A stretch of 64,000 bases of DNA, from positions 97,118 through 161,117 of the forward strand of contig JAIOOX010000002.1 in NCBI GenBank assembly GCA_021414225.1. The letters are read 5' to 3'. The notes under the pieces are model-generated. The model saw only the letters and a program-made list of their open reading frames with translations, made no database searches and was not told the origin of the DNA. Of this stretch, positions 2,999 to 64,000 are shown in pieces. The stretch comes from Candidatus Vogelbacteria bacterium (GTDB taxonomy: Bacteria; Patescibacteriota; Minisyncoccia; Phycocordibacterales; XYD1-FULL-46-19). Each line of letters begins with the position of its first letter. Within the stretch, counting starts at the first letter, position 1. The position numbers and the translations under genes were made by a program.

Positions 2999-3110
2999 AC
3001 TTAGATTATTGTTGCATATTATCCATAGGTGTGCTATAGTGACATATAGAAGTTGGGGAGAAGTAGCACCAAGGGGGTGTTTTTTTATTCCCTATTAAGG
3101 AGATCTTAAG

Positions 3111-3320
3111 TTGGAGATTGAGCGGGCGTTGAGAAGTGGTAAAGGGGTAACCCTTGGAGAGGCGGTCCAGATATGGGAAAGAGAAGGTCGTCCGACAAAT
3201 TTTAATCTCGTTGAAGGACAGGATGGATATGACGATCGTCACCTGAAAGGGGATGTTGGCCGTCGGCACCATCGGCAACAACAGCCTCGACAGAGTTTTG
3301 CTGGCGGTGGTCGGCGGTAG
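3111..3320 (+). CDS. hypothetical small protein (69 aa, TTG start)
   Basis: An AAGGAG Shine-Dalgarno at 3097-3102 lies 8 nt before the TTG. The ORF ends in a Gly/Arg-rich tail (GGGRR) and is followed by a hairpin plus T-tract at 3343-3380. Local GC is higher than the flanks. It could instead be non-coding. Confidence 0.3.
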   Translation: MEIERALRSGKGVTLGEAVQIWEREGRPTNFNLVEGQDGYDDRHLKGDVGRRHHRQQQPRQSFAGGGRR

Positions 3321-12253: not shown

Positions 12254-12327
12254 TGCCAGATCGTCTAACGGTAGGACAGCAGCCTTTGAAGCTGTTTATC
12301 TAGGTTCGATTCCTAGTCTGGCAGCCA
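12254..12327 (+). tRNA. tRNA-Gln (anticodon UUG)
   Basis: Manual cloverleaf fold: acceptor TGCCAGA/TCTGGCA, D-arm GTCT-AACGGTA-GGAC, anticodon stem GCAGC/GCTGT with loop CTTTGAA (anticodon TTG), T-arm TAGGTTCGATTCCTA, discriminator G, and an encoded CCA. Confidence 0.85.
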
Positions 12328-12453
12328 GGAGTTTTTTAATAAAAAAAACGACACAGATGTCAGACTAGGAGAGAGGGGTCGGGAGAGAAAGTCTCTCCCG
12401 TGGAGGAAGGTATGGGAGAACCGTGGGTTCCCCAGCTCCGTATGTCTGGCAGC
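12316..12453 (+). repeat. 10-bp direct repeat GTCTGGCAGC (tRNA-Gln 3' end at 12316-12325 repeated at 12444-12453)
   Basis: An exact 10-mer copy of the tRNA 3' acceptor/T-arm junction lies ~120 bp downstream. The two copies flank a GC-rich hairpin-dense stretch (12340-12443). This is an att-like signature. Confidence 0.5.
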
Positions 12454-12608
12454 GAATATGAGCTAGCACGAGTTACCTAGGTAAACGTGCAGGTTTCTAA
12501 TCAAATTTTAGCCTCAGCTAATTTAGCTTATTGTGTTAAAATGGTTCAAATGAAAGTTGTTAAAAAGAAGAATATTGAAGATCTTACTAAAAAACAATAA
12601 ACATCATT

Positions 12609-12794
12609 ATGGAAAATCAAAACGATACTTATAAAGCAGAAGTTTACTGCGGTAACTGTGATTTAAGAGAGGAGATTAATATACTCAAAGGTCAAACTAT
12701 TAATGAAACAAAGTGTCCAAATTGTGGTACGTGTGAACTTGACAAAGATCATAAAGCGGTAACATTAAGACCCTATATTGAAAATTACAGGTAG
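12609..12794 (+). CDS. small zinc-ribbon protein (CxxC...CPNCGTC)
   Basis: 61-aa ORF with two CxxC pairs. It is the first gene of a tightly packed AT-rich operon: its stop lies 3 nt before the next start. Confidence 0.55.
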   Translation: MENQNDTYKAEVYCGNCDLREEINILKGQTINETKCPNCGTCELDKDHKAVTLRPYIENYR

Positions 12795-12797
12795 ATT

Positions 12798-13397
12798 ATG
12801 AACGATAATGACTTAATAAGAGAGAATATTTTAAAGTATCTTTATAAGATAAATAAAGAGGCTTCTATTATAGATAGAACAAGGTGTAATGAACGTCAGA
12901 TCTTTCTTAATTTGCAAGAAAAACATTCTCGGCCTGAGGTAGTAAGTAATCTGGATTATTTAATAAAGACAGGTTGGGTTAAATTAGAGAAGATTAATAA
13001 ATTACCGTATTATTCGATTAGTGATAAGGGGATCAATCATTTTGAAGGATCGTCATTTTTTCAAAAATCTCATTGGGTAACTGGAATAAATATAAACAAT
13101 ATTCAAGGTGTTACAGTTATAGGAGATCACAATTTTGTGCATCAGGAATTTGGTGATTTATATAAAAATTTGGATCTTTTGAAGGAGGAAGTTACTAAAT
13201 CAGGAACTATTTCTGATGAAGATAAGCTCGATTATCAATCAGAAATAGAGACTATTAAAAGCCAGCTGGCTAAAAAAGAACCCAATAAGAATATCATAAA
13301 ACAAGCTTGGGCTGGGTTATCAGTGCTATCAACTCTTGAAGGTGTCGTACAGTTTTACCAAATGGCTGAAGAATATATAGAGCCGTTTTTAACATAA
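12798..13397 (+). CDS. hypothetical protein, possible N-terminal winged-helix domain
   Basis: 199 aa. The N-terminal ~85 aa have a wHTH-like pattern (ENILKYLYKINKEASIIDRTRCNERQIFLNLQEKHSRPEVVSNLDYLIKTGWVKLEK) and the C-terminus is coiled-coil-like. No confident family assignment. Confidence 0.5.
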   Translation: MNDNDLIRENILKYLYKINKEASIIDRTRCNERQIFLNLQEKHSRPEVVSNLDYLIKTGWVKLEKINKLPYYSISDKGINHFEGSSFFQKSHWVTGININNIQGVTVIGDHNFVHQEFGDLYKNLDLLKEEVTKSGTISDEDKLDYQSEIETIKSQLAKKEPNKNIIKQAWAGLSVLSTLEGVVQFYQMAEEYIEPFLT

Positions 13398-13987
13398 TGG
13401 ATGGTGTAGGAAATATCAAAGAATACCAAATAGCAGGTTTACTGCGTGTTGCTAATGAGCAATTGGCATATTGTAATTTGATTACGGAGTATCCTGGGCT
13501 TTCTAGTAAAAAGAACTTTGATCCCTTGTCAGCTGTAGATCAGTTCTATAAAAGTGTCTGCAATGTATTTTTTCACGACAGCTTATTAATCATTAGCTCT
13601 TTGCTTGATAGTAAGGATTCTAGAGTGATTGGGCTTTGGAATTGGAAAGACTTTACTAGTTATAAATCTTCTGAATTGAAACTCATAACAGATTCATTTA
13701 ATAATGGACCATTAAAAACAATAAGAGATCAGTTAATTGCTCATCAAGATGTAAGTAACCCTAATAATCAATTTCCAGATTCTAGAAGGACAGGAATTAT
13801 AAAGGAAAACCTTATCATGCTAGCTCAAAGCACCCTTGATAGCATTATTAATGAGTTTTGTGATTATGCACAAAAATTTAGTACCCCGTATAGTGAACAG
13901 TATTTTGATACAGAGGAAGCAAAAAATCAGCTAACCTCAGTAATGAGATTAGCTGTACCAACTCTAACTAATAATGATGTTATTTAA
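13397..13987 (+). CDS. hypothetical protein with possible HEPN-like Rx(4-6)H motif
   Basis: 196 aa. Its start overlaps the upstream stop (ATAATGG). It contains TIRDQLIAHQD, which fits the HEPN RNase signature Rx4-6H. This is a motif-level observation only. Confidence 0.5.
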   Translation: MDGVGNIKEYQIAGLLRVANEQLAYCNLITEYPGLSSKKNFDPLSAVDQFYKSVCNVFFHDSLLIISSLLDSKDSRVIGLWNWKDFTSYKSSELKLITDSFNNGPLKTIRDQLIAHQDVSNPNNQFPDSRRTGIIKENLIMLAQSTLDSIINEFCDYAQKFSTPYSEQYFDTEEAKNQLTSVMRLAVPTLTNNDVI

Positions 13988-14065
13988 AAAAGTTTCATAA
14001 TGTTTCACTTTTTAACGAGTATTAGATCTGTTGTTTTAGCAAGGGTATAGGAAATGATATAATTC

Positions 14066-14093
14066 AATGAATAATGAATAATGAATAATGAAA
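14066..14093 (+). repeat. tandem heptamer AATGAAT x3.5 spanning the start codon region
   Basis: AATGAAT AATGAAT AATGAAT AATGAAA. Each unit carries an ATG. The first two open 4-codon mini-ORFs (MNNE-stop) and the third is the ORF start at 14081. Confidence 0.8.
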
Positions 14094-14713
14094 AGGATTT
14101 GGGAGATCTTAACTCTACAATCGAGACCGGATACGTCAAAATATCCAAGCATGGGAATGCTCGACTCGCTAATCTCCAGGATGCCATTAGCTCTACAACA
14201 AAAGAACTCTTAGCTGTCTATTCAAATGATATGCGTAATTTAGGAATTGTGGCTGGTACGGTCGCGCCTTTTTCGCTCACTTTACTTGGAGCGAATCAAT
14301 TCGATATAAACAATTTAGCTTTAATGTTTGGATTTTCTTTTCTGCTTTATGCGATCATCTTATCTCAATTTTTTTTATTTAGACTTTCAGATGCTTATGA
14401 ACACAGAACGAGTCGAGCTGAAATTAGTTGGGTATTTGCACAATTTGGTCTTTGGCAAATGGAGGATGTTAACAATGACTCAACTAAACGAATAAATGGA
14501 ATGTTTGATTACCAAAAGAGGACCCGAGAGGTGGAGGGTCATCTTGGTCTAAACAACACTCCATCTCCACACCTCCTGGTTTTAAGAAAGAAACTACGTT
14601 CCTATAACCTAATTACGTTACTTCTCGTTACTTCTGGGATTATTCTAATCTTGGGATCGGTTGTAATAAACCCAATTTCTGCTTGGATAATCATAAACGT
14701 TTATAATCCATAG
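14081..14713 (+). CDS. hypothetical membrane protein (2-3 TM)
   Basis: 210-aa ORF. The hydrophobic segments are VAGTVAPFSLTLLGA, FGFSFLLYAIILSQFFLF and LITLLLVTSGIILILGSVVI. It is the last gene of the AT-rich cassette. Confidence 0.5.
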   Translation: MNNEKDLGDLNSTIETGYVKISKHGNARLANLQDAISSTTKELLAVYSNDMRNLGIVAGTVAPFSLTLLGANQFDINNLALMFGFSFLLYAIILSQFFLFRLSDAYEHRTSRAEISWVFAQFGLWQMEDVNNDSTKRINGMFDYQKRTREVEGHLGLNNTPSPHLLVLRKKLRSYNLITLLLVTSGIILILGSVVINPISAWIIINVYNP

Positions 14714-14864
14714 TGAACGAGACGCGTCGTTCCGATAAGCTAAACGAAGTAAGTGGGGCTTGATCGAAAACGGTTCTAGCTCGAGAAGGTCAGCCAACTT
14801 GAGATAGGTTCGGAGTCCGAGAAGTATTACAACTTTCTTGTGGATGAGTGTTATAATGCCAAAC

Positions 14865-16572: not shown

Positions 16573-16692
16573 TAAAAATATACGAAGACTCATTGAATAT
16601 GTAAACTAACCCCAGTTCTAATTTTTTCTTTAAATAAACGTTTGTGATCGAAAATCCCGAGTTGTTTGGGGTGCTTATGGAGAAACTGTAAT

Positions 16693-16740
16693 GCCGCTTC
16701 TACCGACAGGCAAAAGTCGGGGAGGCGGCTTTTGTTGTTA
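16693..16740 (+). terminator. compound GC hairpin plus T-rich tract
   Basis: GCCGCTTC-TACCGAC-AGGCAAAA-GTCGGG-GAGGCGGC followed by TTTTGTTGTT. It lies at the left edge of the high-GC island, upstream of the lysA-like gene. Confidence 0.45.
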
Positions 16741-16848
16741 ATATTTACTTTACCTAAAAATGTGGTAGAAATATATCCGGACGCCAAGGTATGTATGCCT
16801 TGGTATTTTTGGAAACTAGAGGACCTTGAAAGAGGAGGATTTAGACAG

Positions 16849-18111
16849 ATGCCTATGTCAAAGGCGTTCGAGGACAGGCTACACCCTGATCTTCGAAAAA
16901 TCGCCGATCACTTCGGCACCCCCTTCCACATCTATGATGAGGCGGGGATCAAGGGGACTGGCAAACGCCTTAAACAAGCATTTGCGAATCTCCCGTCAGG
17001 TTTTGGGGAGTTTTTTGCGGTGAAGGCCCTGCCCAATCCGCGCATTCTCCAGATCATGTACGAAATGGGTTTCGGGTTTGACTGCAGCAGTATTCCCGAA
17101 CTTGTTTTGGCTCGCGAAGCCGGAGCCATGCCCGGTCAGATCATGTTCACGTCAAACAATACTTCGCAAGAAGAGTTTGACGCGGCTATGGCTGACGGCG
17201 GTTGCCGGCTCAATCTCGACGATATCAGCTTCATTTCGAAAGTACCGGAACCTTTTCCTCGCGGAATCTGTTTCCGGTACAACCCCGGCGAAAAGCGAAC
17301 CGGCAATGCCATCATCGGTAATCCGGTGGAGGCGAAGTATGGCGTGTCCGATGTCCAAATCGTGGACGCCTACGGCCAAGCCATTCTTCGGGGAGCCGAA
17401 TGCTTCGGGTTGCACACCATGCTCTGCTCGAACGAACGGAACTACACCTATATGGTGGAAACTATCAAGATGTTGCTCGAACTGGTCGAGCGGATCAGCT
17501 TGGCCCACAAGATCAAGTTCGACTACATCAATTTCGGCGGCGGTCTGGGAATACCCTATCGCCCCGAAGATAACCCGCTCGATCTAGAATCATTGGGCAA
17601 CGAAGCCTTTGGTTTGTTGGAAGCTTTCAAGCAGAAGCATGGCTACGCGCCGGAGTTGTGTATGGAAAGTGGTCGGTTTATGACCGGCCCTCACGGTGTT
17701 TTGGTGGCTGAAGCGATCAATCGCAAATCCACCTATCGTGAGTATGTCGGTGTCGATGCTTGCCAAACGGCACTCATGCGCCCGGCCCTCTACGATGCCT
17801 ATCACCACATCACAGTGCTTAATGGCGATGGCCGCCCCACTGAAGTGGTGGACATTGTCGGAGCCATCTGCGAAAACTGCGACAAGTTCGCCAAGCAACG
17901 CGAACTGCCGGTCATCAGCGAGGGTGATCTGCTGATGATCCACGACACTGGGGCTCATGGTCTGGCTATGGGCTTCAACTACAACGGTCGCTTGCGGCCG
18001 AAGGAACTTTTGCTTCGATCTGATGGAACGGTGGAACTCATCCGCCGAGCCGAAACCATTGACGATCTTTTCGCAACCTTAACCTTCGAACCCGAAAGCT
18101 TGGCGCTTTAA
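16849..18111 (+). CDS. lysA: diaminopimelate decarboxylase-like PLP enzyme (Orn/DAP/Arg decarboxylase family 2)
   Basis: An AGAGGAGGA Shine-Dalgarno precedes the ATG at 16849 (MPMSKAF...). Motifs include FAVKALPNP (PLP-lysine), GFGFDCSSIPEL, GGGLGIPY, ESGRFMTGPHG and DTGAHGLAMGFNYN. GC is ~58%, against ~40% in the flanks. Confidence 0.8.
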   Translation: MPMSKAFEDRLHPDLRKIADHFGTPFHIYDEAGIKGTGKRLKQAFANLPSGFGEFFAVKALPNPRILQIMYEMGFGFDCSSIPELVLAREAGAMPGQIMFTSNNTSQEEFDAAMADGGCRLNLDDISFISKVPEPFPRGICFRYNPGEKRTGNAIIGNPVEAKYGVSDVQIVDAYGQAILRGAECFGLHTMLCSNERNYTYMVETIKMLLELVERISLAHKIKFDYINFGGGLGIPYRPEDNPLDLESLGNEAFGLLEAFKQKHGYAPELCMESGRFMTGPHGVLVAEAINRKSTYREYVGVDACQTALMRPALYDAYHHITVLNGDGRPTEVVDIVGAICENCDKFAKQRELPVISEGDLLMIHDTGAHGLAMGFNYNGRLRPKELLLRSDGTVELIRRAETIDDLFATLTFEPESLAL

Positions 18112-18137
18112 CGCCAGGAAAAAGTGAGGAATCTGAA

Positions 18138-19346
18138 ATGTTGAGACCACGCATTCAGACTGGAGCAAACCTGTTCCAGTTGATCAAGGCCATCTGCCGT
18201 GAGGCGGAAGAAGAGGGGAAGCAGCTTTTTCGGCTGTCCATCGGACAACCGACGGGGCCGGCTTTCCTCTCGGCCAGAGTCAAAGCGGCCGAACTCATCA
18301 TGAGCGACGAGGAGAAGTGGCATGAGTACCAGGACAACGGCTGTGTGATTCCGAATTTCGCTCAGCGTTTCGTGCAAGCTCATGTGCCGACAACTCGTTT
18401 CGACCAGTTCGGCGAACGGCTGGCCTATCTCCCGATTCCCGGCATCAAGTCGATGCTGGAGATTGTGATCATGGCTTGTCTTCATGGTTTGCCGCCAATG
18501 GAGAAGCCGCTCCGGGTGTACACCACAACCAAACCGGGGTATCCCACTCCGGCGGATCAGTGCCGTTATCTGGAGGACAACGGGGCGCAAGTGCGTCATC
18601 AAGCGCTGGAGACTAATCCCGGAAATCAGTTCCGTTTCGATCCGGAAGATCTCAACGTGATCGGGTCAAGTTTGGTCATGACCAATTACCCGAGCAATCC
18701 GACCGGGCAAGTCGCTTCGCGGGAGTATTGGAAAGCCCTCTGCGCCTACTGCGAACTTTATGGCTTGCGACTGTTCAACGACGCCGCCTACGCGGCGCTG
18801 CCTCACACCAATGAGCACTGTACCCTGGCGGCGGTGGCGGTGGATTACCCGAACCTGTCCTGGATCGAAGCCTACTCCGGTTCCAAGATAGGCAACTTCA
18901 CTGGTTGGCGAGTCGGCGCAATGGTCGGTTCGGCCGATTTCATTGCCGACGTGGCCAATGTGAAAGGCAACAGTGACAGTGGCTTCAACGCAGCGTTGGC
19001 TGGTGGAATTCTGCACGTTCTGGAACATGATCGGGAGTCGCTGGATGCGACGCGACGGCTGTACACCGGACGGACAGAACTCCTCACCAACGTCCTTCAG
19101 GAGTATGGTTTGGAGTTGGCTGTCCAACCTCAAGCCGGGTTCTTCACTCTGTGGCAGTGTCCGAAACGCGCCTTCGGTCAGGTGATTGAAAACTCCGAGG
19201 AGTTCAATCGTCTGATGATCATGAAAACGGGTATTGTTGGTGTTCACTTCAATCCGTACATGCGCTACGCGGTGTGCGGCGATGTGGAAGCGATGATCGG
19301 CCCGATCACTGAGGGCTTCAAGGAAGCCAACGTCAGCTACAAGTAA
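18138..19346 (+). CDS. dapL: class I/II PLP aminotransferase, LL-diaminopimelate aminotransferase-like
   Basis: Block-by-block similarity to the DapL family: LSIGQPTGP, KPGYPTPAD, TNYPSNPTGQVA, SGSKIGNFTGWRVGAMVGS (PLP-Lys), NVKGNSDSGFNAALA, QAGFFTLWQCP. A GTGAGGAA RBS sits 27 nt after the lysA-like stop and the high GC continues. Confidence 0.7.
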   Translation: MLRPRIQTGANLFQLIKAICREAEEEGKQLFRLSIGQPTGPAFLSARVKAAELIMSDEEKWHEYQDNGCVIPNFAQRFVQAHVPTTRFDQFGERLAYLPIPGIKSMLEIVIMACLHGLPPMEKPLRVYTTTKPGYPTPADQCRYLEDNGAQVRHQALETNPGNQFRFDPEDLNVIGSSLVMTNYPSNPTGQVASREYWKALCAYCELYGLRLFNDAAYAALPHTNEHCTLAAVAVDYPNLSWIEAYSGSKIGNFTGWRVGAMVGSADFIADVANVKGNSDSGFNAALAGGILHVLEHDRESLDATRRLYTGRTELLTNVLQEYGLELAVQPQAGFFTLWQCPKRAFGQVIENSEEFNRLMIMKTGIVGVHFNPYMRYAVCGDVEAMIGPITEGFKEANVSYK

Positions 19347-62467: not shown

Positions 62468-62474
62468 TGTTCAG

Positions 62475-62547
62475 TGGACCCTAGCGGATTCGAACCGCTC
62501 ACCTCCGAGGTGCAAGCTCGGCGCTCTACCAAATGAGCTAAGGGCCC
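62475..62547 (-). tRNA. tRNA-Ala (anticodon UGC)
   Basis: The reverse complement GGGCCCTTAGCTCATTTGGTAGAGCGCCGAGCTTGCACCTCGGAGGTGAGCGGTTCGAATCCGCTAGGGTCCA folds into a cloverleaf with a G3:U70 alanine-identity pair and anticodon loop CTTGCAC. CCA is not encoded. The ORF-track ORFs at 62272..62532 and 62330..62536 are artefacts over this tRNA. Confidence 0.9.
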
Positions 62548-62731: not shown

Positions 62732-63367
62732 TTATTTCTGTCTTTTTTGGTTGGTTTTTTTGGCCGGTTTCCATTTTTGGTGAGACTTGGTCCTATCTAT
62801 CCACCAAGGGTCCTTGTCATCGTGCCACCAGTCGTCTGGGTGGGTAGAGAGTAAGAGTTTAGCAATCTCCTTACCAGCTGGTGTTTTCATGCGTTTGGAA
62901 GCATCTAGAGCCCAACTTTTAGCCTTGGCGTTACCTTTAGTTTCTTCTTCCCGCATGGTGGCCAGCCATTCTAAATTGTCTGCATCTTTAACAAGCCTAG
63001 CTTCCAAAGTTTCTTTAGCTTGTTCTTCCAAATAAGCTTGTTCGATTTCTTTACCGAAAGGGACACTGACAGCGATATCTTTAACGGCGTTGCCCTCCGC
63101 CAACCGACCATAACGCTGGTGAACATAGTTAAGGTCGGAAACTCGACCCTCACCGATATCATGGACAAGAGCCATGAAAATAACTTTATGTTTATCGGCT
63201 TTAGGAGTTAGATAGCACAAAGCATAAGCGATCATGGTGGTACGGAAAAGATGTTCAGCCACTGATTGTTTGCCACTACCAAGGAACCACAGACCAGAGC
63301 GAGGTGTTTTTTGATGAATTCCCATTTCGTAAACAAAGTGGGTGATTTGCTGGAGGTCTTTCTTAGT
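62732..63367 (-). CDS. HD-domain phosphohydrolase (YfbR-like 5'-deoxynucleotidase family)
   Basis: H...HD...D metal motif (VAEHLFRT..., ALVHDIGEGRVSD, VKDADNLE). The likely start is the internal ATG at 63367 (MTKKDL...). A Trp/Lys-rich C-terminal tail is present. Confidence 0.7.
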   Translation of the reverse strand, partial: TKKDLQQITHFVYEMGIHQKTPRSGLWFLGSGKQSVAEHLFRTTMIAYALCYLTPKADKHKVIFMALVHDIGEGRVSDLNYVHQRYGRLAEGNAVKDIAVSVPFGKEIEQAYLEEQAKETLEARLVKDADNLEWLATMREEETKGNAKAKSWALDASKRMKTPAGKEIAKLLLSTHPDDWWHDDKDPWWIDRTKSHQKWKPAKKTNQKRQK

Positions 63368-63425
63368 CATTGAGACTAGTATAGTTAAGTTTTTAGCAAA
63401 ATGCATCTACCGGTAAAACTGGTGA

Positions 63426-63476
63426 GGTAATTTGAAAAAGATAAAGGGCGCCGACTGTCTACGACAGTCGGCGCCC
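63426..63476 (-). terminator. rho-independent terminator on minus strand (14-bp stem)
   Basis: GGGCGCCGACTGTC-tac-GACAGTCGGCGCCC with TTTATCTTTTT downstream on the minus strand. It follows the stop of the flotillin-like gene. Confidence 0.8.
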
Positions 63477-63494
63477 CATGGGTTCAAGAATAGT

Positions 63495-64000
63495 TTACTG
63501 CGTGACTGCTTCGGCCGGCTGTTCAGTCGGCCGGTTCAGTAGGTGGCCAAATACGGCCGCCGCGCCCTCGAGGTTGTTCCCACCACCGGCGCCGTTGTTG
63601 ACGACGACATCGGGCACGAATTTCTTTGCGTTTTCGATGGCGCTAGTCAACAGCTCCGGATTTTTTTCCATGATTTCCGTGATGGCCTTGAGGCCCTGCT
63701 GGAACATCTGGAGTTGGGCGGTCATTTCCTTGCCGAGTACTTCCGCTTGGGCCTGTTGGCCTTCGGCGAGAGCGAGCAAGTAGGCCTGTTCGCCTTTGGC
63801 TTCCGTTTCCCGGGCTTGCGCACGGTTTTCGGCGGCTTTGGCGAGGATTTCGGCCTTGACCAGTTCGGGTTGCTGTTCGGCAGTCGCCCGGGCGTTTTCC
63901 GTGGCCTGACGCTGGGTCTGAGCCATTTCTTCCTGGACCCAAGCCTTCATCAGCTGCTGGGCCAGCTGTTCACGCTTGCGCGCGATCAGGAGCTCGGACG
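63495..64000 (-). CDS. SPFH/band-7 (flotillin/YqiK-like) protein, C-terminal part (5' end beyond window)
   Basis: The minus-strand frame is open to the window edge (...SELLIARKREQLAQQLMKAWVQEEMAQTQRQATENARATAEQ...). It has an Ala/Gln/Glu-rich coiled-coil tail typical of flotillin-like SPFH proteins. GC is ~60%. Confidence 0.55.
   Translation of the reverse strand, partial: SELLIARKREQLAQQLMKAWVQEEMAQTQRQATENARATAEQQPELVKAEILAKAAENRAQARETEAKGEQAYLLALAEGQQAQAEVLGKEMTAQLQMFQQGLKAITEIMEKNPELLTSAIENAKKFVPDVVVNNGAGGGNNLEGAAAVFGHLLNRPTEQPAEAVTQ

Follow-up and report, generated by a model that had tools for sequence, protein, structure and literature searches.

This report concerns four open reading frames (ORFs), designated p1 to p4, that lie 3' of a tRNA-Gln(UUG) gene in a 64-kb stretch of DNA (hereafter the window), which was taken from a 409-kb contig of a Candidatus Vogelbacteria metagenome-assembled genome. 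Candidatus Vogelbacteria belongs to the Candidate Phyla Radiation (CPR), or Patescibacteria, whose members have tiny genomes with few recognised defence systems; accessory defence genes and their insertion sites in this group help to explain how episymbionts cope with phages. An earlier note on the window, made from its letters, had described the ORFs as a tightly coupled, AT-rich cassette of proteins of no recognised kind, docked directly at the tRNA and perhaps representing an integrated islet or a novel defence-like module. The tRNA gene and the four ORFs were recovered by ARAGORN, Rfam and ORF calling, and p2, p3 and p4 correspond to the NCBI hypothetical proteins K8Q91_01235, K8Q91_01240 and K8Q91_01245. 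The features at the locus, in window coordinates, are as follows.

12254–12327, forward strand: tRNA-Gln(UUG) (ARAGORN; Rfam tRNA model, 64.2 bits)
12317–12340, forward strand: terminator-like hairpin and T-run at the 3' end of the tRNA, TCTGGCAGCCAGG then AGTTTTTTAA (consensus scan only)
12354–12500, forward strand: GC-rich (57%) structured RNA-like element, with a conserved core at 12358–12434 and the second copy of the tRNA-end 10-mer GTCTGGCAGC at 12444–12453
12609–12794, forward strand: p1, 61 amino acids (aa), a four-cysteine Zn ribbon with two CxxC pairs
12798–13397, forward strand: p2, 199 aa, a winged helix followed by a helical C-terminal domain
13397–13987, forward strand: p3, 196 aa, classed here as a divergent AbiU2-type HEPN protein
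14036–14063, forward strand: promoter-like site 5' of p4, TTAGCA-16-TATAAT with an extended -10 TG, 10 of 12 positions (consensus match only)
14081–14713, forward strand: p4, a membrane protein of 210 aa

The first three genes are closely packed. p1 and p2 are separated by 3 nt, and the p2 stop and p3 start share the sequence TAATG at 13395–13399 (a 1-nt overlap), in agreement with the start and stop arrangement reported earlier; because the p3 start overlaps the p2 stop, p3 would be co-expressed with p1–p2 at this locus. The claim of tight coupling does not extend to p4, which follows p3 after 93 bp. As this gap has a promoter-like site inside it, the block does not constitute four tightly coupled genes. 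Nor does the cassette begin directly after the tRNA, since a 281-bp spacer, which holds the terminator-like hairpin and the structured element, separates tRNA-Gln from p1. The block is bordered by a histidine-phosphatase gene on the tRNA side and by a 2-hydroxyacid dehydrogenase gene on the other.

The description of p4 as a membrane protein was borne out by its hydropathy profile, which shows at least two strongly hydrophobic segments (aa 76–103 and 172–208) and gives two or three transmembrane segments in all. Only four homologues were found among the 5.8 billion clusters searched, their neighbours are unrelated to p1–p3, and p4 has no family match in Pfam, PADLOC, PHROGs or NCBIfam. The gene is probably a separate transcription unit; its membership of an operon with p1–p3 was rejected on the grounds of the gap, the promoter-like site, the host-like GC content and the separate distribution.

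The GC contents of p1, p2 and p3 are 32.8%, 31.0% and 33.0%, respectively, and p2 and p3 are the two lowest-GC ORFs among the 50 window ORFs that reach 150 aa (mean 41.1%, standard deviation 5.1). At 37.4%, p4 is ordinary for the window and host-like. The low-GC block of the earlier note, put at about 30%, is thus found in p1–p3 (31–33%) but does not include p4.

The p3 protein and its relatives

The HEPN-like R-x5-H motif that had been noticed in p3 is encoded by the codons at 13724–13726 (R110) and 13742–13744 (H116). These residues occupy the only invariant columns in an alignment of 48 p3 family sequences and are the predicted catalytic residues of the protein. The Pfam family HEPN_AbiU2 (PF18734) is matched by 29 of the 48 members (best E = 1e-5), and no other family is matched by more than one of them. 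p3 itself matches PF18734 at E = 0.008 and 16.1 bits, below the gathering cut-off of 26.8 bits. Its AlphaFold2 model is all-helical (predicted local distance difference test, pLDDT, 77.8; predicted template modelling score 0.79), a fold that is consistent with the assignment without being decisive. On the evidence of its family, we therefore accept p3 as a divergent protein of the AbiU2-type HEPN class, and the earlier motif call is supported.

AbiU2 HEPN proteins, known from the Lactococcus AbiU abortive-infection system, have been reported in restriction-modification (R-M) operons (Anantharaman et al., 2013, PMC3710099). p3 resembles them in its all-helical fold, its length of about 190 aa, its family-invariant R-x5-H and the PF18734 matches of its family, as well as in setting, as p3 relatives occur in defence islands and mobile elements. 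It differs in falling below the gathering cut-off, in lacking an AbiU1-like or Sel1-repeat partner (the genes next to it are unrelated) and in lacking a PADLOC match, no PADLOC model being matched by p3 or its family. Moreover, the p3 family is found in CPR-type metagenomic contigs. Type II/VII toxin-antitoxin systems of the HEPN-MNT kind (e.g., PDB 7ae2 and 5yep) were also compared. Here, the partner position upstream of p3 is taken not by a nucleotidyltransferase but by the winged-helix/Zn-ribbon pair, no nucleotidyltransferase domain being found in p1, p2 or p4 with Pfam or NCBIfam, and the pairing of p3 with p1–p2 is not conserved in other genomes.

Four other clusters of p3 homologues, at 90% identity, were found among the 5.8 billion, and a profile search of 1.84 billion representatives found 66 homologues. 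Three other contexts were seen, in which p1, p2 or p4 never stands beside the p3 homologue (L numbers denote contigs and loci used for comparison). In L002, the homologue is part of a defence island with a serine recombinase, an AAA_15 ATPase, DUF4365, SLFN_AlbA_2 and a type I R-M system; in L007 and L008, it belongs to an element with Rep and a serine recombinase; and in L010, it adjoins a gene for a trypsin-like protease. Viral contigs yielded no relatives of p3 or p4, a plasmid search returned no match for p2 or p3, a sequence-profile search of solved structures returned nothing for these two proteins, and NCBIfam and PHROGs gave nothing significant. As a separate observation, in the type I R-M operon of L002 (10485–16585), hsdM and hsdS enclose a KAP-family nucleoside triphosphatase gene and a gene for a 156-aa protein.

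The p1–p2 pair and the p2 family

p1 gives sub-threshold matches to Pfam Zn-ribbon families. Its homologues (44–56% identity) were found immediately upstream of the closest p2 homologues only (59–64% identity to p2), and p1–p2 is thus a conserved pair. One copy of the Zn-ribbon gene is present in L012–L014, L024 and L025, and two tandem copies are present in L011 and L108. The tandem copies (L011, 5653–6004; L108, 3167–3541) are 40–45% identical to each other.

The pair is kept in four independent contexts (the window, L011, the L014 group and L108), each of which has different genes downstream. In the window, the pair is followed by p3; in L011, by a truncated gene with a weak AbiU2 match (E = 0.0018); in L014, by genes for an 81-aa and then a 422-aa protein; and in L108, by genes for proteins of 81, 116 and 347 aa. 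The 422-aa protein of L014 contains an R-x4-H that aligns to the p3 motif, at a non-significant hhalign E of 0.077, and when the proteins downstream of the pair in L011 and L014 were compared with the p3 family by profile, neither gave a significant result.

The earlier assignment of a winged helix-turn-helix (wHTH)-like N terminus to p2 was confirmed by its AlphaFold2 model (pLDDT 83.7), in which aa 1–83 adopt an H-H-H-beta-beta fold that matches solved wHTH regulators (MarR/PadR-like). A helical C-terminal domain spans aa 116–198. The linker between these domains, GINxxNIQGVTVIGDxN (aa 91–114), is the most conserved segment of the family and is modelled with low confidence.

About 98 homologues of p2 were found, including in Bathyarchaeia. 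For a survey of their contexts, 83 further loci were fetched, ORFs were called and neighbours were clustered, giving 74 distinct p2 proteins, 32 of them with enough flanking sequence. At 17 of these 32 well-flanked loci, Pfam placed the p2-like gene between hsdM (N6_Mtase and HsdM_N) and hsdS (Methylase_S), with hsdR downstream. Neighbours at the other loci include type II and type III methylases, Mrr, PLD, XhoI, a TIR domain and a NACHT domain. Owing to this embedding in hsd operons and to the R-M and defence neighbours, the p2 family is regarded as an R-M satellite family. The window copy is not embedded in this way, as no homologue of hsdM, hsdS or hsdR was found in the 64 kb. Three viral contigs carry p2 homologues, two of them inside R-M operons.

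The type I R-M operons themselves (L087, L053, L085, L097, L059 and others; e.g., L087, 4191–11764) have the order hsdM, p2-like gene, hsdS, optional gene, hsdR. The optional gene, which encodes 283–312 aa (about 290), has no Pfam match and recurs in several operons.

The anticodon nucleases PrrC and RloC are nested in hsd operons and are thought to back up or monitor restriction, and the effector of PrrC is a HEPN ribonuclease (RNase). The p2 family is likewise nested inside hsd operons; however, p2 has no ATPase or nuclease domain, the window has no R-M system, and p3 is a separate protein without fusion to an ABC ATPase.

A further parallel to p2 was found in PADLOC, where aa 101–192 of the protein match the model PDC-M14B at E = 4.5e-8 (best in the family, 3.4e-11). 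All 48 p2 family members match this model. PDC-M14 is a candidate two-gene cassette, FAM_02625>>FAM_00494, proposed through "guilt-by-embedding" in BREX, DISARM and type I R-M systems (bioRxiv 10.1101/2024.01.29.577857). p2 resembles it in its C-terminal helical domain, which corresponds to the C terminus of PDC-M14B, in its embedding in type I R-M operons and in the presence of a small upstream partner gene. It differs in that the match covers about 90 of 265 positions (model positions about 168–256 of 261–275), the N-terminal part being a winged helix in p2; in that PDC-M14A is matched by none of p1, p3 and p4 at E up to 1; and in that most p2 homologues are single embedded genes.

The absence of PADLOC hits that the earlier note wished to see checked holds for p3 and p4 but not for p2. 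Its impression that the genes match no nameable system has to be revised as well, since p3 resembles AbiU2, whereas p2 comes from an R-M-embedded family and has its C-terminal domain in common with PDC-M14B. Its judgement that none of the four matches a recognised housekeeping family stands, the genes being accessory and of defence type.

The tRNA-Gln neighbourhood

In L011 and L108, a tRNA-Gln(CUG) gene lies directly upstream of the Zn-ribbon and p2 genes, in the same orientation as in the window, and the outer flanking genes on both sides are wholly different among the three loci. GC content at the tRNA drops from 59–62% upstream to 36–46% downstream in L108, and from 40–42% to 28–34% in L011. 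L012–L014 carry p1–p2 without an adjacent tRNA. Another case is provided by L007 (3360–4922), where a large serine recombinase gene and a tRNA-Gln(CUG) gene run in opposite directions and the recombinase stop codon falls within the 3' end of the tRNA. Junctions of integrative elements classically look like this, and the element here carries Rep (REP_ORF2-G2P) and a p3 homologue. By a rough estimate, a given gene in a ~1-Mb genome would adjoin tRNA-Gln by chance with a probability on the order of 1e-3. Set against this figure, three independent cases of adjacency indicate that tRNA-Gln is either favoured for docking or itself belongs to the unit. The proposed docking at tRNA-Gln is thus supported by other loci (L011, L108 and L007) and by the GC drops in L108 and L011, rather than by the att-like (attachment site-like) repeats cited in the earlier note.

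Those repeats fared differently from each other. GTCTGGCAGC, the 3' 10-mer of the tRNA, occurs in exactly two copies in the 64 kb, at 12316–12325 and 12444–12453. The repeat is real; a match to the tRNA of this quality is reached by only 1.2% of shuffles. Its spacing is 128 bp instead of the reported 120 bp, and because both copies are upstream of the genes, they cannot bracket the cassette. The T-arm-like sequence TAGGTTCGGAGTCC at 14805–14821 (forward strand) has a local alignment score of 17 to the tRNA, which is reached by 8.5% of shuffles and by 27% of other 124-bp segments of the window. This is chance level; the sequence was rejected as a distal att site and is not part of the feature.

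The structured element in the spacer has a minimum free energy of −61.4 kcal/mol (z = −3.6). A homologous element follows tRNA-Gln in L108 (2999–3103; region 2999–3140), a locus that is otherwise unrelated, and the element is absent from L011. Both copies have the conserved flanks GACUARGAR..GGGUCGG and GUGRAGGAAGG. The first hairpin differs in sequence between window and L108 with its pairing kept, by way of two to four compensatory pairs, and the second, GGAACC-GNG-GGUUCC, is conserved between the two. The element is possibly a new structured RNA; two copies are too few for it to be called a new RNA family. Rfam gave no family for either copy at E up to 10, and identification as signal recognition particle RNA (considered for dnaX synteny), tmRNA or a riboswitch was rejected on this basis. 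ARAGORN at a lowered threshold reads the element as a pseudo-tRNA of 97 nt in which the variable arm is long and the anticodon loop non-canonical; given this sub-threshold result, identification as a tRNA was also rejected. No third copy was found in 658 kb of fetched DNA with a covariance model (R1), and a motif search of viral contigs was set aside, its 46 matches being close to the estimated chance number and all scoring at most 17 bits with R1.

The acceptor strand of the tRNA is also repeated in L108, where the 3' part of the resident tRNA-Gln recurs downstream as CCGGCAAC (~2927–2934 and ~3132–3140). In both the window and L108, the repeat lies 130–200 bp downstream of tRNA-Gln and its sequence tracks the local tRNA, whereas its position relative to the conserved RNA motifs differs between the two loci. 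The repeat could be an att scar left by a past event, or it could pair with another part of the RNA element.

The Logan assembly of run SRR15633504 is broken inside tRNA-Gln, at about window positions 12270–12299 (the end of L107 and the start of L001). The contigs at the break overlap by ~30 bp, which could reflect population heterogeneity or a tRNA common to related genomes. An exact-protein look-up of the flanking gene, aimed at strain variants, revealed nothing beyond this break, which is uninformative because conserved tRNAs often break assemblies.

Interpretation of the locus and neighbouring features

We favour, with moderate confidence, the reading of this region as a small, horizontally acquired, defence-type islet 3' of tRNA-Gln, built as a mosaic of three independently mobile modules: p1–p2, p3 and p4. 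The single four-gene module that had been proposed is not upheld, because no other contig carries more than the p1–p2 pair. The p2, p3 and p4 families share a contig with each other only in the window genome, and their neighbours elsewhere differ; when co-occurrence in other genomes was checked, as the earlier note had advised, only p1–p2 recurred together. Like tRNA-targeting islands, the islet lies 3' of a tRNA, recurs at the same tRNA species in other genomes and has AT-richer, patchy cargo; in addition, the related element of L007, which has a serine recombinase and a p3 homologue, directly adjoins tRNA-Gln. It differs from them in having neither a recombinase nor flanking direct repeats, in its size of about 2.4 kb, which is far below the typical one, and in the position of its short tRNA-end repeat, which lies between the tRNA and the genes and not at the far end. 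As no recombinase remains, the islet would be a decayed remnant.

In the mechanism proposed for this mosaic islet, p1–p2 would be the conserved tRNA-proximal edge module of a tRNA-Gln-linked islet family, with p2 accompanying defence genes not as an enzyme but as a sensor or regulator that binds nucleic acid. p3 would be a stand-alone RNase that uses R110 and H116 and, when activated, arrests growth or aborts infection; it may be kept in check by p1–p2. p4 would contribute a separately transcribed small membrane protein. Two "hypothetical" proteins can be placed, p3 putatively in the AbiU2 HEPN family and p2 in a widespread archaeal and bacterial R-M-embedded family, and tRNA-Gln is identified as a recurrent docking site for defence-type cargo. 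These results extend known kinds (HEPN Abi effectors, R-M satellites and tRNA-linked islands) to a poorly studied lineage and overturn no concept.

Several points weigh against the mosaic islet. No integrase or recombinase was found among the window ORFs, and tblastn with the serine recombinases of L002 and L007 detected no recombinase remnant in the window. No distal direct repeat of the 3' part of the tRNA was found either, the real 10-mer repeat being proximal to the genes; with the distal motif at chance level, both 10-mers on the same side and neither an integrase nor a remnant, the att-like argument for integration is not supported. The compositional signal at the window locus is modest, since GC at third codon positions (GC3) in p1–p3 (0.25–0.26) equals that of the adjacent host histidine-phosphatase gene. 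The tight linkage of tRNA-Gln and p1–p2 could also make the tRNA part of a conserved unit instead of an integration target. PDC-M14 is only a candidate system and has just the C-terminal domain in common with p2, and the activities ascribed to the p1–p4 proteins are predictions. Finally, the comparison with close relatives rests on two distant loci without the tRNA, among the matches listed in a scan of genome contigs with the flanking histidine phosphatase.

A first alternative is that p1, p2 and p3, with or without p4, form one abortive-infection or toxin-antitoxin-like system, in which the Zn-ribbon and winged-helix proteins, either as sensors of foreign nucleic acid or by repressing and neutralising p3, control the release of the HEPN RNase, with p4 as a membrane effector. 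Such a system would account for the translational coupling (the 3-nt p1/p2 gap and the 1-nt p2/p3 overlap) and for the low GC common to the three genes, and it could draw on the weak AbiU2 match of the truncated gene in L011 and the aligned R-x4-H of the 422-aa protein in L014. These two HEPN hints are not significant, however, and p1 and p2 were never found near p3 homologues. Most p2 homologues have no HEPN neighbour and lie in R-M operons, the pair in L108 is followed by unrelated genes, and p4 is distributed separately and is preceded by a promoter-like site of its own. We consider a single system unlikely.

It appears similarly improbable that p1–p2, instead of being a defence component, serves in the maintenance or regulation of a mobile islet specific to tRNA-Gln, with p3 and p4 as cargo. 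The pair would then encode a repressor or a DNA binder resembling a recombination directionality factor at the island edge, possibly working with the structured RNA. In three of its four contexts, p1–p2 indeed comes first after tRNA-Gln, always in the same orientation; the winged helix is a typical fold of excisionases and repressors, a conserved structured element stands between the tRNA and p1 in two loci, and the cargo downstream is variable. Yet more than half of the well-flanked p2 homologues are found within type I R-M operons, a long way from tRNAs and recombinases, no recombinase accompanies p1–p2 in any of the four contexts, and L012–L014 carry the pair without an adjacent tRNA.

A broader proposal, which we hold to be doubtful, is that the locus represents an undescribed family of tRNA-Gln-docked CPR defence islets, each with a leading edge of structured RNA, one or two Zn ribbons and the winged-helix protein, followed by interchangeable effectors. 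By sensing infection or controlling expression, the leading edge would turn on the downstream effectors, which in the window would be the AbiU2-type HEPN RNase and possibly the membrane protein p4. If true, this would represent an R-M-independent use of an R-M satellite sensor, the winged-helix protein having been drawn from type I R-M operons.

Vertical descent of an ancestral locus that has a cellular function tied to tRNA-Gln and owes its low GC only to amino-acid composition would accommodate the GC3 shared with the histidine-phosphatase gene, the lack of an integrase or att site and the tRNA-Gln linkage in three genomes, but is highly implausible in view of the very patchy distribution (five p3 and five p4 proteins among 5.8 billion clusters), the wholly different flanking genes at the three tRNA-Gln loci, the abrupt change of GC at the tRNA in L108 and the homologues in R-M operons, defence islands and recombinase elements.

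Two other regions of the window depart from its overall GC content of 41%. Towards its end (63001–64000), past a tRNA-Ala(UGC) gene at 62474–62547, GC rises to 52%; no rRNA was found there by Rfam at gathering thresholds. At 16666–19346, adjacent genes for an Orn/DAP/Arg decarboxylase and a class I/II aminotransferase have 52–56% GC and 61–68% GC3, and since the GC boundaries are sharp, the two genes were probably acquired by recent transfer from a high-GC donor.

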